A stretch of DNA of 42,374 nt, taken from positions 1 through 42,374 of the forward strand of contig JALAGF010005534.1 of the NCBI GenBank assembly GCA_030167865.1, given 5' to 3'. The stretch's first letter is position 1, and the number at the start of each line of letters is the position of its first letter. The position numbers and the translations under genes were made by a program. Source of the DNA: Craspedostauros australis. Taxonomy: Eukaryota. Shown here piece by piece: positions 12,380 through 24,065 of the stretch. The notes beneath the pieces are model-generated. The model saw only the letters and a program-made list of their open reading frames with translations. It had not been told where the DNA came from and did no database searches.

Positions 12380-15143
12380 CGTGCTGCTGTAGTTGTGCTG
12401 TTGTTGTGCTTTTGGAATTTATGGAATGATTGGTGGATGGATGCACTGGTGGACGGATGCAATGATGGATGCAACAATGGATGCGATGATGGACGCACTA
12501 GTGAATGAAACCAGGAGTACAAGCCCTGCAGGATGGAGCAGAGTGATGGAACAACGGTCGTTGTGCTATTGTGTTGCTTTGCTTGCCAGTGTGGTCTGGA
12601 TCGTTCGGTTTTGGTGTGGCGTGGTAGTTCTCGCGCGTCTGGCACAAGCGAGGGTTTGCTGCTTCGACTTGTTCGATGGCTGATTGCTTTGCTGGTTTTG
12701 TGAGCCTGCGATGGTCTTGTTTGACAAGTTCCTCCTTGTCACTCCCTCTCTCTTGGGCTGCAAGTGCGATTATCCCTGCTTTCCGCTCCAACCGGCAGTG
12801 CGTGTGCTGTTGCGAATTTCGCTGAATTTGTGATCTGTGCGATCTGGGAAACGAAACCGAAGTCGACCCTCTCGCGATCCGCACGCACCACGCACAACAA
12901 TCCCACGACTGTGTCTTCCCATTCTCCATTGTACCTATCATTCGCATATATACGAAAATAGTATAATCGGCCAGCGGCATCGGCCTTGTCGTATCAAGAA
13001 TGAACGGGTCCATGCCAAGACAAAAGAGTGATGATGTTGGAACTGTTGGATGACCGATGTTGCTTTGTGCATTCGTGAACACGTGACGCTGTGCTTGGTC
13101 TTGTGACGTTAATGTTGGCGGAGTCGCCAAGCTGACATTCGATTGGTCTTTTTTCAGACCAATGATCCTTGGGAAGATATAACCATACAGACAACATTTA
13201 AAGTGCGTTCTTGTTGTGCTGCATCGTGATTGGGAGATTGCCAATACCAATCGGGGTCTGGATGTCACTCACAGTCCCCTGTTGGGCTCTTTGCATCACT
13301 TTGCCTTACTGCGTCACGCTTTCTATCTCCTTCTCTGTCTCTGTGTATCAATTTGCTTCCACGAGTTCTGTATTCCTGCATGCGGCGGTTCCTTCTGTGT
13401 GCACAACTCAGCCAGGTGAGAGTTGTCTCGCTCCTGCGTGTGCTTGAGATCTGCGGAGAATTGCTGAGATGTGTTCTTGGTGTGTTGCTGTAGCCTCATC
13501 CATGATTCTCGTAGCGCAGACTCTGGAGAGTGGACGGGATGCGACAAGCCAAGGCACTAACCAGGTCCTGTACCACCATCTAAAACGACTATTCGAGGTA
13601 CGAGCTGCAGTGGAGAACCATCACTTCCGCATGCTCACTGGTCTTGTTGGCACAGGAGTGCGAGAAATGCCTCGTACGAGTAGTAGATCGTGCAGCAAAG
13701 TAGAAGTGCCGAAGGTGGCATACCATACCATAGCTCGGACGTGTGCATTCGCACTCCATGAGATGCAGCCTCCGCAAGATCTTGCAGCTGCGGATATCCT
13801 CGTTGCCATTGCTAAGATTGCCCCATGGCAACACATAAACGGGCACTTTTGGAGATGGGGCGACGATGTTGCCAGCGTTCTGGTTGTTGAAGTTCCTTTC
13901 TGGTGATGATGATGATGGTGGTGGTGTCGTGCAAGGCATTGCTCCTGGTTGTTCTGGATGGCTTTGAGGGCGTCCCAAGCCGCAAGGCGCACATCTTGGA
14001 TGTCCCGCCATGCCAAGGTGGTCTTGTGGTGGCGGCATGGGCACGAAGCAGACACTTCCGTCTTGCGACTCCGCACAGGATTTATGAACATCGCCGCTCT
14101 GTTGGGCATGAGATGCAAGAATGACGCAACTGCGGGTCGAGCACGATCTATGGTAACATGTGTACTGCATGTTTCGGGGTGGTAGGAGTATACATGCCAA
14201 ATTAGTAGAGTCCCAAGACAGCGCGCTTTCAGACGGGCACGAGTATGGTGTGGAGAACGAACTATGGCAGGATGTGGGGGATACCGAAGTGAACGTAGCA
14301 GCGGGAGCATGAGACATTGTGATGCAGAGGTCACGCAACACCAGAATGCTCGGTCCATCAAGGGTCACGCGTTCTGGTCTGGTCTGCTCTGAGTTGTATG
14401 GTGCCCTCTCCCACATCATGCCACACCATACATTCCATGCCATACATTCCATGCCATACATTTCAAGTCACATACGCAAGTGCGCTCTTCGTGCCATGCT
14501 CTCTGGAGAGTTGAAACAGCAGCACATGATGGCCACTCTCATAAATTCCTGACATCCGTTTGAATCACCAGCACGCATGGTACTCTGCATGTAGGATGTG
14601 GGAAGGAAGGCGCGTGGGCCATGAGGTGACAGCCGGAATGGACGCGCTCTTTGTGTCTGCGCACTTGGGCGGACTCTCTTCGCATGCGCTGCGGCGATGT
14701 GGCCGGAGACATGAAGTGTACATGGTACTCTCCACAACATTCTCTGCTGACACTCAGCAAGGAAGCGAACAAAGCAGAAGTGTCGCTGGCGAATGTGTGA
14801 AGCAGGTCCTAAAGAATTACAATCGCAATGCTGATACTCAGCCAATACTTCATAAAGTACCACCTCCATCGCGAGCATCCTGTTTGTCTGGCAGAGCATG
14901 GTGAGCCGAAATGTTGTGTGTGATTGGAATAGGTCATTCACAATGCATATCGCCGTCCGTGTTTCTTTTTGCTCTATCTGTCTGTCTGTCTGCCTTTTTG
15001 GCTGCAGTGCAGCCCGTTTCATCTCATGTTGTGCGTGCGCTGCAGTGAACTCCACGCTTGTTTGCTTGCTGTATTTATTGCAGTAACAGCACTAGCACTG
15101 TCGTGCTTGTATGATGAGTACGAATTGCTCTGTTGTGTCGCGC

Positions 15144-17174
15144 TTAGAAACAATGATTTGCATCGGGTACGCCAAGAGCATCGAGAGATTCGTTGCAGTT
15201 CCCGATGTAGGCGTTGTCTGGAAATCCATGAACGCCTCCACCCAAGGTGGTCTTGTGATGGATGGACGTCCACGTGATGACGTTCTGCGCGCCGGTGGTG
15301 AGCGAGGTCCCGACGCGGAATGTGAGACCATGCGTCCACGCATACTTGAGGCGCTTGAGGAGGTTCTTGCCTTCATTGTTGTGCGGGAGGTAGGCCGTGC
15401 GGGATGTTCCGGAGTATCGCGCTCCTGGATTGTCGTGGAACTGCCGCTGCGTGCCGCTTGGCATGCTGTAGTCGATCTGGATGGTCTCGTGGGTGTTGCG
15501 GAAGCCTGGGCATGCTGCTTGGATGACGTGGATGGACATGGTGCCGGACGGACTGCGGCCTTGCGGTTCCCCAACGGTCATGCGACAGATGGGGCAGCGC
15601 GGTTCCTTGTTGAGGCACTCCTGGATGCATTCGTCGTGGAAGACGTGGCCGCATTTGGCGATGGCGACTTGCGGGCCATCAGAAAGGGGGCAGAGACAGA
15701 TGACGCAGTCCTCCTCCTCGTCTTCGTCGTCCTGCTTCTTCTCCTCGTTGCTAGTTGCGGGTGCCTGATGACTTGGCGCTTTGCTGCTGCTGCTGCCGTT
15801 ATCTGGGGATGAGAGGCTGGGCCGGCTGCGCTTCTTGGACTTTTTGCAGGAGCGCACTGATATGCACTGCAAGGCGGAGGCGATGGACACCCCCTGGGCC
15901 AGCGTTTGCGGGGCGTCGTAGCGGATGTGCTCCGTCTGCACTGTCTGGTTTGATGTCATGGCTGGTGCTGAGAATCCAAACATCATGGAAGTTGCATGGG
16001 TTTGTGTTGTGATGGAAGCTGAACCTTGTGGAATTGTTGCAAAGGCAGAAGTTGAGTGAGCGCCTGGAACGTGGCGGCGTGTTCTGGCCCTTGTTCGTGA
16101 TCGTGTGCTGGGAGCAGACGCAGCGTGTCGGACCGTGGGAAGCGTGGAAGAAGACGAGGATGGGAGATTGACGTGCACAGGCACCGTGGGAACTGTCATC
16201 GCCTGCTGTTGCTGCTGTTGTTGCTGACACGATCGTGCATCGGGAATGTGCAGACGATCCATGGCATCGTGGCATTGCTGGAGGTAGGTGGGATCTGGGT
16301 AGCCGAAAGAGCCGCCCTGGAGTCCAGTTTTGTGGGGAATGCCTGCCCACACCACCACGTTGGACCTGCCGGAGGTCTGCGACGTGCCCACCTTGAAGGT
16401 GAGGCCCGCAAGCCAGCAGAACTTGAGGCGTGCCAGCAGGTCCAGTCCCTCACGCGTGGTGGGAACGTAGGCCGTCCTGGAGGTTCCGGAGTGCGGTGCG
16501 CCTGGCTTGTCATTGTAGTCCTTCTGCGTGCCGCCGGAGATCGTGTACATGATCTGGATGGTCTGCGTGTTGGTTGGGAAGCCTGGCACTTCGCCTGGCT
16601 TGACGGAGACGGACATGGTGCCGCTGGGGCACTCTGCGGAGGCCTCGATGACGGGCGCGGAGCAAACAGGACAGTTGGACGTGCAGGACAAGGGGGCGTG
16701 GATGCAGGCCTTGTGGAAAGAGTGGCTGCAGGTCTTCAGCTGCACGGACGCCTGCGTTGACAGCGGAGCGAAGCAGATGTTGCACGAGGCGCAGCTGCTG
16801 TTGTTGCTGGAAGCATTGGAAGCATTGGAAGGGGCAGAAGCGGGTGGAACGGGAAGGTAGGCCTTCTCCAGCAGCGCTGCCTTGTTGGGAGGGGCGCTGT
16901 ACGTCAACGTCTCGGTTATCACTGATCCACCGCCTGTTGCTGGCGTTGCAGGTTGATGCGCTGGTTGATGGTTGTTCGTCCTCATACGAGTGCTCCTCAT
17001 GGTGCGACCACCCGCGACACCTGCAACAGCTGCAACACCACCATTGCCATTAGCATTAGCATGAGAGTTAGAGCTTACATTGGAACTGCCATTGCCATTG
17101 CCATGACTGTTGCCACCTCCGTTCAAAGAGACGTTCATCTTCGCAAACCTCCGTGAGATGCTGCTGGCACTCAT
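15144..17174 (-). CDS. Deltex-type E3 ubiquitin ligase with two tandem RING-H2 + Deltex C-terminal (DTC) modules
   Basis: RING1 CNIC...CSHSFHKAC...CPVC (~16662-16784) then DTC1 PSGTM...RTAYVP...GLTFKVGTS...HKT...GYPDPTY. RING2 CVIC...CGHVFHDEC...CPIC (~15585-15707) then DTC2 PSGTM...RTAYLP...GLTFRVGTS...IHHKT...HGFPD. First ATG is 17174; the ORF-track start 17228 is TTG. Confidence 0.93.
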   Translation of the reverse strand: MSASSISRRFAKMNVSLNGGGNSHGNGNGSSNVSSNSHANANGNGGVAAVAGVAGGRTMRSTRMRTNNHQPAHQPATPATGGGSVITETLTYSAPPNKAALLEKAYLPVPPASAPSNASNASSNNSSCASCNICFAPLSTQASVQLKTCSHSFHKACIHAPLSCTSNCPVCSAPVIEASAECPSGTMSVSVKPGEVPGFPTNTQTIQIMYTISGGTQKDYNDKPGAPHSGTSRTAYVPTTREGLDLLARLKFCWLAGLTFKVGTSQTSGRSNVVVWAGIPHKTGLQGGSFGYPDPTYLQQCHDAMDRLHIPDARSCQQQQQQQQAMTVPTVPVHVNLPSSSSSTLPTVRHAASAPSTRSRTRARTRRHVPGAHSTSAFATIPQGSASITTQTHATSMMFGFSAPAMTSNQTVQTEHIRYDAPQTLAQGVSIASALQCISVRSCKKSKKRSRPSLSSPDNGSSSSKAPSHQAPATSNEEKKQDDEDEEEDCVICLCPLSDGPQVAIAKCGHVFHDECIQECLNKEPRCPICRMTVGEPQGRSPSGTMSIHVIQAACPGFRNTHETIQIDYSMPSGTQRQFHDNPGARYSGTSRTAYLPHNNEGKNLLKRLKYAWTHGLTFRVGTSLTTGAQNVITWTSIHHKTTLGGGVHGFPDNAYIGNCNESLDALGVPDANHCF

Positions 17175-22551: not shown

Positions 22552-24065
22552 CTACGCGGCCTTTTGGATGGATTCCAACTGCAAACACGGTGGAAGATCG
22601 GCCTTCGTGGGATAGGACGTCTGTGCACCGACCTTACGGACGGACATGCTGGCGACTCCGCAGGCAAATATGGCAGACTGCTGCAAGCTGACTCCCATCG
22701 ATAGGTACGCCGCGAGGGCACCGCAGAATGCATCGCCTGCGCCGATCGTGTCCTGCACGGGTTCGTTGCGGGCTGGCAAATCCTCGGGCGCGTCCACCAA
22801 CGTGACAGCAGTTTCAGCAGAATCACCATCGTTGGTGACGATCATGGCGCCGCGTGCTCCGAGCGTGACCAGCACAGACTGCACTCCTTTGGCGAGGAGC
22901 GCTTTGGCCATCTCCTCCTCCGTCATCGTATCCGATCCCATCCCTTGGCAGATCTTCTGCAATTCTGTCTCGTTGGGAATGAGAATGTCGACATGCGGGT
23001 AGAACTCTTGTCCGGGATCCTCCAATGTCCAACCCTCCGGCGCCGGCGCTGTGTTGAGGATCGTGATGGCTCCGATCTCCTTGCCGACCTTCAATGCTTC
23101 GAGTGCCACTTCTGGCTTGATCTCCAGCTGCACAACCACCACGGCTGGCTTGGCCTCCAGCAAGGATTTGCGCACATCGTCTTTGGTCATGGCGTAGTTC
23201 GCGCCCGGCGATACGATGATCATGTTGTCACCTGATTTGGAATCGACCGTGATGCTTGCCACGCCGGATGGCGTATCGGCCAGCACGGTCGTTGCTTCGT
23301 CGAACTCCACATTCACGCGTCCTGTGGCAGCAGCGGACGATACATGTAGTATGACGTATAATAGATGACAACGATTAGCAACATGGGAACTTGACATGTG
23401 GATTGCGAGAAGAATACTGGTGGAGCGGAACAGTGTGTGGTTTCTGCGAATATATAACGCGCATGTATGTAGGGCTTGGACAAAACATCGGTTCTGGACG
23501 CCACCATGGGGACAGCGAGCAGCTTCACATCGCATCGCATCGCATCCCACCATGTGGCACCATCAATTTGCATCATCGCACGCACTCGAAATGAGAACTT
23601 ACGAAAGTTGTCCAACAAGTTCCTGCCAAAGATGTCATCACCCACGCGGCACAGCATGGAGACGGGCACGAGGCCCAAGGAAGCGGCCGCAACTGCCTGG
23701 TTGGCACCCTTGCCACCACAGGCCGTAGTGAAGGTATCACCCATGACGGTCTCGCCCAGCGTGGGGAGGATGTTGGTGTTGGAGATCAGATCCTGATTGG
23801 TGGATCCCACCACGACGATGCGCTGATCGTCGTTGCGAGCATCGCTGTCTGTGTTGGACGCGGACATGCTGAGCATGGGTGAAGAGGAGCGTGGCTGTGT
23901 GTATGAGTGCGTGTCTTGGTACGGATGTGTTGTGGATAGTCTTGGTGGTGCCGTTGATTGGATTGTGAAAGAGCGAGCCGTGGGAGTCTGAAGGATTGTG
24001 ACCAAAGTGAAGAGGCAGATCAGGAGGCTGGAGGAGGAAAGCACATGCACTGCTTGTCGGACCAT
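22552..24065 (-). CDS. RBKS: Ribokinase (PfkB family), two exons: 24065-23603 and 23321-22552
   Basis: VVVGSTNQDL, GGKGANQAVAAA, QLEI, NTAPA, PNETE, VTLGARG, DTIGAGDAFCG. The GTAAGT donor at 23602 and CAG acceptor at 23322 join ...NFR-RVNVEFD in frame. Confidence 0.93.
23322..23602 (-). other. Spliceosomal intron (281 nt, phase 1) in ribokinase
   Basis: GTAAGT...GCTAAT (branch-like)...ACAG; splicing restores the PfkB frame. Confidence 0.85.

Follow-up and report, generated by a model that had tools for sequence, protein, structure and literature searches.

Tandem RING-DTC proteins of the Deltex type in diatoms: a His-type and a Pro-type DTC domain as a conserved pair

The closest described systems to the protein analysed here are the human Deltex (DTX) ligases: DTX1, DTX2 and DTX4 share the architecture WWE-WWE-RING-H2-DTC (PDB IDs: 6Y5N, 6Y5P, 6Y22, 6Y3J), and DTX3L and DTX3 are built as KH-RING-DTC (PDB ID: 3PG6), with DTX3L known in complex with PARP9. 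In DTX2, both His582 and Glu608 are needed for the ubiquitylation of ADP-ribose, where they and the ADP-ribose 3' hydroxyl form a catalytic arrangement, and both residues are reported to be strictly conserved among DTX proteins (PMC7615817). The adenine is stacked by Trp578 and His594 and the diphosphate is held by Arg535 and Ser567/568 (PMC7442474, PMC7500938), with His582 also contributing to ligand binding in DTX1/2 (PMC7615817, PMC7442474, PMC7500938); the accessible portions of these three reports yielded no single-mutant affinity for His582. In the case of DTX3L, ubiquitylation of ssDNA was abolished by the H707A mutation and impaired by E733A (PMC11460948). Nucleic-acid activity was limited to DTX3L and, to a lesser degree, DTX3 (PMC11460948), and hence cannot be assumed for the protein described below. 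The arginine linchpin of RING domains, which favours transfer to lysine, is absent from human DTX proteins (PMC7615817), the RINGs of which function without it (PMC7615817, PMC7500938). The mechanistic Deltex work found in the literature searched concerns animal proteins only.

The window analysed here is the whole stretch of 42,374 nucleotides of contig JALAGF010005534.1 from Craspedostauros australis. The original prediction had placed it in a diatom, with which the 92 silicon-transporter matches in the genome agree; about a dozen of these are near full length, many are fragments or contain stops, and the number may reflect either a large expansion or assembly redundancy. Within the window, a reading frame of 676 codons without a stop (P0001) exhibits the following features:

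15144..17174, minus strand: open reading frame P0001, 676 aa, in the order YxAP-RING-DTC(Pro), linker, YxAP-RING-DTC(His)
16917..17174, minus strand: N-terminal low-complexity region rich in N/G/S/A, aa 1-86, codon usage not coding-like
16890..16916, minus strand: YxAP motif 1, aa 87-95, modelled as a strand and then a short helix
16662..16784, minus strand: RING-H2 1, aa 131-171, eight zinc ligands, linchpin position Ser
16236..16643, minus strand: DTC 1, His-less, aa 178-313, Pro280 codon at 16335-16337
15936..16226, minus strand: Q/S/T-rich linker, aa 317-413, pLDDT < 50 for the most part
16019..16228, minus strand: candidate in-frame intron of 210 nt with a weak donor
15909..15935, minus strand: YxAP motif 2, aa 414-422
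15825..15848, minus strand: basic patch, aa 443-450, in a low-complexity stretch between YxAP motif 2 and RING 2
15708-15734, minus strand: acidic patch, following the basic patch
15585..15707, minus strand: RING-H2 2, aa 490-530, eight zinc ligands, linchpin position Arg
15159..15566, minus strand: DTC 2, His-type, aa 537-672, His639 codon at 15258-15260

The original prediction of a duplicated Deltex-type RING-DTC protein, with two RING-H2 and DTC units in one frame and neither WWE nor KH domains, is borne out by Pfam, by the reading frame and by the alignment of AlphaFold2 folds. Pfam detected two DTC domains (E 1.4e-78 for the whole protein) and two RINGs, both of the H2 type, and no WWE or KH family at E <= 0.01; the two units are 48% identical across 183 aa. 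A search of the genome returned three DTC matches: two in P0001, both within its single open frame (E 6.9e-42 and 1.0e-33), and a third, weak match located on a different contig. The AlphaFold2 model, which covers aa 84-676 and was calculated from an input alignment of 78 sequences, exhibits a pLDDT of 81; both units are folded and the linker between them is disordered, with no further folded region in the part modelled; the pTM of 0.52 for the full model means that no fixed orientation of the units is predicted, and nothing more. Over the full unit length, unit 1 aligns with the solved RING-DTC structures of DTX1/DTX2 with a Z score of 20.3 (rmsd 3.9, 202 aligned residues) and unit 2 with a Z score of 21.1 (rmsd 4.7, 197 aligned residues). 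In both units Pfam and structure place the RING directly before the DTC, the arrangement that defines Deltex proteins, and in most homologous units the gap between the last CxxC and the DTC is 5-7 residues. No link to the Deltex gene was found among its neighbours (MFS transporter, aldo-keto reductase, cytochrome b561, Ham1 and PfkB); the PfkB kinase at 22552-24065 of the window (minus strand) lies in two overlapping frames, a split probably due to an intron.

DTX2 numbering was transferred from alignments to 6Y22, with which the structural alignment agrees (residue 588 of the model pairs with DTX2 616). The adenine/diphosphate pocket (DTX2 Arg535, Ser567, Trp578, Thr585 and the aromatic residue 594) is present in both units: unit 1 retains Arg233, Ser265, Trp276 and Thr283, with Phe290 at the His594 site, and unit 2 retains Arg592, Ser624, Trp635 and Thr642, with His649 as the equivalent of His594. 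At the catalytic His582 position, unit 2 has His639 and unit 1 has Pro280. The catalytic Glu608 is found in neither unit, with Ser663 (unit 2) and Ala304 (unit 1) at this site and a Glu or Asp sitting one residue before it in each. P0001 is a Deltex protein by its domains, with both members of the His-Glu pair missing from unit 1 and the Glu missing from unit 2; the original description of the units as complete thus stands for the fold but not for the catalytic residues, as unit 1 has no His582 equivalent. That both units act in tandem as active ubiquitin ligases on ADP-ribose or nucleic acids, which is the plain reading of that description, appears to us highly improbable: whilst both RINGs exhibit eight zinc ligands, both units fold like the DTX1/2 RING-DTC and human DTX RINGs work without the Arg linchpin (PMC7615817, PMC7500938), the His-Glu pair in unit 1 is replaced by Pro and Ala, the His mutant abolished DTX3L activity (PMC11460948) and most His-less relatives have lost the RING. 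Two equivalent enzymes are unlikely because unit 1 lacks the catalytic His.

The reading that we prefer for the observed frame, folds, residue states and family-wide pattern of P0001 and its relatives, and which could as easily fail as hold, is that of one working ligase joined to a dead DTC that serves as a second binding site for ADP-ribose or nucleotides. By analogy with human DTX1/2/3L, from which we infer both chemistry and ligand, unit 2 would be the working ligase: RING2, with its Arg linchpin, would hold E2~ubiquitin, DTC2 would bind ADP-ribose or an adenine-nucleotide end, and His639 would direct ubiquitin to a ribose hydroxyl. Transfer to the hydroxyl would probably be slower, as this unit has Ser where the His-Glu pair has its Glu; nearby lysines of an ADP-ribosylated carrier would be the alternative ubiquitin target. 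With Pro in place of His, unit 1 should be unable to activate the hydroxyl, and would be a pseudo-catalytic copy that retains the residues for adenine stacking and pyrophosphate binding. Its putative role would be that of a binding module, a tethered second site for ADP-ribose, poly-ADP-ribose or nucleic acid that would stand in for the WWE or KH domains of animal Deltex proteins, and its RING, lost in most relatives, would be dispensable.

This reading presumes one polypeptide. The original prediction had placed the basic KKSKKR patch in the Q/S/T-rich linker, although its actual position is after the second YxAP motif and before RING2. It had also noted a motif shared by the two units, which is indeed present upstream of each but is not special to P0001: YxAP precedes 254/326 DTC units examined compared to 10% in shuffles, at a median of 24-25 residues before the RING and, in RING-less tandem units, 8 residues before the DTC. 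AlphaFold2 models it as a confident strand, and its retention after RING loss suggests that it is a structural part of the module. In the linker, the codons of aa 314-396 resemble those of non-coding sequence, with a change to coding-like usage at Met397, a second frame is likewise free of stops (openness alone is therefore weak evidence for coding), and the linker is long when compared to the family median of 30 aa. All three observations would suit two separate genes, or the production of unit 2 mostly alone from an internal start at Met397, with the long frame being read-through. We nevertheless regard this as very unlikely: the frame is maintained, with no stop codon behind unit 1; negative codon-usage scores are also obtained for low-complexity stretches elsewhere in the genes of this genome; and splicing of the candidate 210-nt intron would explain the codon signal whilst leaving a single protein with units 1 and 2 and a linker close in length to the family median. 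Furthermore, complete transcript-derived two-DTC entries exist for Conticribra, Licmophora and Attheya, which means that, in those diatoms at any rate, a single protein contains the tandem. In case of P0001, no read or contig joining units 1 and 2 was found; from one sequencing run, for which an RNA origin is a guess, a single contig was obtained (14787-15625), which does not extend from one unit to the other and was weighed neither for nor against a joint transcript. At the N-terminus, translation may in truth begin at Met59 or Met64, judging by the codon usage of aa 1-86. A brief Phe-plus-basic stretch at the N-terminus (window 17130-17174) is seen in 14/46 His-less-first proteins and 1/35 single-DTC proteins, by a loose pattern chosen after looking at the sequences, and is possibly a targeting signal.

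The homologues do not support the view that the tandem is peculiar to this gene. At least two DTCs are present in 85 of the best 120 homologues listed, with 2 of these 85 having three; named tandem relatives come from Conticribra weissflogii, Licmophora paradoxa, Attheya, Cylindrotheca, Amphora, Chaetoceros dichaeta and the entry Psemu1, which we take to be Pseudo-nitzschia multiseries. Multi-unit RING-DTC entries are also found in vertebrates, namely fish and frog (zebrafish dtx3lb.2 and the DTX3L-like entries of Anabarilius, Engraulis and Mantella; P0123, P0134, P0135, P0148), which together with the diatom tandems indicates that the architecture alone is not rare. Widespread as it is, a description of the tandem RING-DTC architecture was not found in the literature searched, outside of which subscription journals mostly lie, and the accessible portions of the algal papers found to mention Deltex give no architecture. 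The strict two-RING form accounts for a minority, 18/84 two-DTC proteins; a single RING next to two DTCs is seen most often, with the RING on the His unit in 56/84. A metagenome scan gave five loci, all with two DTCs, of which four have one His and one has two; the exact peptide patterns of unit 2, an insensitive search, had no match in viral contigs, and the ESM Atlas returned ordinary Deltex clusters only.

The duplication itself is common; what deserves attention is that a His-type and a Pro-type DTC are paired in a conserved manner. In the first homologue set, ranked by likeness to P0001, exactly one DTC exhibits the His in 76/82 scorable two-DTC proteins, P0001 included, with the His-less unit first in 45 and second in 31 of these; three of the remaining proteins have two His and three have none, and single-DTC matches kept the His in 35/35 cases. 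Relatives in these counts are not independent samples. In a second, more distant set, the 24 multi-DTC proteins divide into 11 without His, seven with one, four with two (all vertebrate entries) and two that were unscorable in one unit, and 76/79 single-DTC proteins kept the His. A rule of always exactly one His was rejected owing to the 11/24 distant multi-DTC proteins without it. The P0020 cluster from Conticribra weissflogii is a transcript-derived two-RING tandem with Pro at the His582 site in both DTCs and, together with these 11/24 proteins, means that the one-His rule is not universal; it can safely be stated that two His are rarely kept in diatom-type tandems.

The replacement is Pro in 69/86 His-less units. 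A full RING precedes 79/86 His units compared to 22/86 His-less units, where RINGs were called by regular expression and four N-truncated entries, cut at the wrong place, were counted as RING-less; 28 His-less N-terminal units begin <=55 aa from the protein start, and some of these may be truncated predictions. His-less units retain Arg535 in 86/86, Ser567 in 85/86, Trp578 in 86/86, an aromatic residue at 594 in 86/86 and Thr/Ser585 in 86/86 cases, whereas single-DTC proteins retain Arg535 in only 20/35, which argues that this residue is not a mere requirement of the fold. His-less DTCs evolve only about 1.3 times faster than their His partners across the 17 closest pairs, being the more diverged unit in 11/17, and exhibit 18 invariant columns of 139 compared to 32 in His units. 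An unrooted DTC tree of 206 units (3/209 were left out as incomplete) requires eight changes between His and non-His, compared to a shuffled mean of 66, with at least two forced by well-supported branches, and places the two units of P0008, P0046 and P0028 as sisters within one protein; thus, the split probably arose more than once. A single origin of the Pro-type unit is likely the weaker explanation when compared to repeated origin, within a tree that is poorly resolved (83/203 inner branches are under 80). A shallow search for stand-alone Pro-type proteins (127-406 aa, only 320 candidates scored) gave 11 matches, ten with a single DTC, of which nine have the His and one was unreadable by the pattern.

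These data bear on whether the His-less DTC binds nucleotides at all. It could instead be a structural, spacer or protein-binding module or a slowly decaying duplicate, with unit 2 responsible for all binding and catalysis, an explanation that we consider unlikely. His582 is needed for binding in DTX1/2 (PMC7615817, PMC7442474, PMC7500938), and hence binding by a Pro unit may be weak or absent; the smaller number of invariant columns, the greater divergence in 11/17 pairs and the absence of a RING from most His-less units also agree with such a loss. Pro is furthermore found at the His582 site of the decayed DTC of the other DTC gene in this genome (described below), which may mean no more than a preference for Pro at this site when the His is no longer constrained. 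These two points, the contribution of His582 to binding and the Pro in a decayed DTC, are the chief weakness of reading the dead DTC as a binding site. Against decay, however, Arg535, Ser567, Trp578 and the aromatic 594 remain in 85-86/86 His-less units, with Arg535 kept more strictly than in single-DTC proteins; the His-less unit persists in tandems that span centric, araphid and raphid diatoms, the groups to which we take the named genera to belong; and the choice of Pro in 69/86 looks like selection rather than drift.

The state of the His units themselves has to be weighed as well. An acid at 608 is seen in 20/86 tandem His units compared to 31/35 single-DTC proteins, so that hydroxyl transfer may be inefficient even by unit 2, and the Arg linchpin is found in 75/79 RINGs of His units, 12/22 of His-less units and 32/35 single-DTC proteins. 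The general loss of Glu608, a linchpin that favours lysine transfer and the 11/24 distant multi-DTC proteins without His could all be accommodated if the tandem family had left ADP-ribose hydroxyl chemistry to become a conventional lysine-directed RING ligase with both DTCs as readers, possibly of some other adenine ligand such as the end of an RNA, a nucleotide with a 3' substituent or ADP-ribose to which ubiquitin is already attached. This we judge quite unlikely: the linchpin in 32/35 single-DTC proteins that keep the His, and mostly the Glu, is not a mark of lost hydroxyl chemistry; the sites of Ser637, His649 and Asn659 (P0001 numbering) are kept in His units and relaxed in His-less units, which indicates that the His site is still under selection; and E733A only impaired DTX3L (PMC11460948). 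A working ligase with a second, non-catalytic binding site remains our preferred reading of P0001.

The link to ADP-ribose in a diatom that the original prediction had suggested is plausible, given 12 PARP matches over the cut-off in the C. australis genome and the PARP-like domains fused to most single-DTC relatives. An N-terminal PARP-like domain is present in 76/114 single-DTC proteins compared to 2/110 multi-DTC proteins (P0070, P0140), and its profile has no match in P0001: tandems have a His-less DTC where single-DTC proteins have the PARP-like domain. The model of one such single-DTC relative resembles the catalytic domains of PARPs (Foldseek E about 5e-6), and the ESM Atlas returned PARP clusters at 0.91 for the PARP-like domain. 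In P0091 and 75 other single-DTC proteins the PARP-fold domain was missed by the Pfam cut-off (best E 0.008), although a Pfam PARP signal appears in 15/30 PARP-fold members at E <= 0.5; judged by the modelled fold, these proteins would be a hidden fusion of writer and ligase. The other DTC gene of this genome (L009:1489-3870, plus strand; G000:C4012) is such a PARP-like-RING-DTC fusion, the RING of which is short of some zinc ligands and the DTC pocket of which is largely lost, with Pro at the His582 site. A PARG search of the genome gave no matches, as did its controls. Among the single-DTC relatives, P0106, P0110 and P0114 exhibit WWE and WGR domains, one of them also PARP_reg; WWE-bearing Deltex-like proteins thus occur among close relatives too. 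Sexual reproduction is reported to be accompanied by upregulation of Deltex family members in four species of diatom (PMC12618581).

A broader proposal, speculative and on balance doubtful, is that diatoms repeatedly turned a duplicated DTC into a dedicated non-catalytic reader via one His-to-Pro change, which would be the first natural pseudo-DTC. Without the His, the pocket would be open on the side of the ribose hydroxyl and may prefer ligands that extend in this direction: candidates would be PAR or RNA units from within a chain, or ADP-ribose already modified with ubiquitin. With the PARP-RING-DTC fusions, the tandems would under this proposal form an ADP-ribose-ubiquitin circuit of writer, ligase and reader outside animals, possibly the Deltex activity reported to increase during diatom sex (PMC12618581). 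A Pro-type DTC that binds ADP-ribose without modifying it would be a novel type of reader, with possible use as a detection reagent, whilst the natural His-type/Pro-type pairs offer separation-of-function variants for binding versus catalysis and for the need for the Glu. The tandem family also points to crosstalk between ADP-ribose and ubiquitin in diatoms.

Comparison with the known systems places P0001 as follows. Like DTX1/2/4, it exhibits a RING-H2 followed by a DTC, the same fold (Z 20-21) and the residues of the adenine/diphosphate pocket, with His582 and His594 equivalents in unit 2; unlike these proteins it has no WWE domain, two RING-DTC units, Pro at His582 in unit 1, Glu608 in neither unit and an Arg linchpin in RING2. 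It shares no KH domain with DTX3L/DTX3, the RINGs of which are of the RING-HC type whereas those of P0001 are H2, but its DTC2 superposes on the DTX3L DTC (Z 21.1, rmsd 1.0, 133 aligned residues), and the aromatic Tyr/Phe at the 594 site of DTX3L/DTX3 resembles that of unit 1. The vertebrate multi-RING-DTC entries, known as gene models, resemble P0001 in that a predicted protein contains more than one RING-DTC unit, two or three in these entries, and differ in that at least two units exhibit His582, Glu608 is mostly kept and Pro is found in none. The nearest single-unit relatives are the diatom-type PARP-like-RING-DTC proteins, of which L009 is a degenerate copy in this genome: they share the YxAP-RING-DTC module (best alignments are 36-62% identical across the listed matches) and combine an N-terminal PARP fold with the His and mostly the Glu, whereas the tandems have no PARP domain and an extra, His-less DTC.
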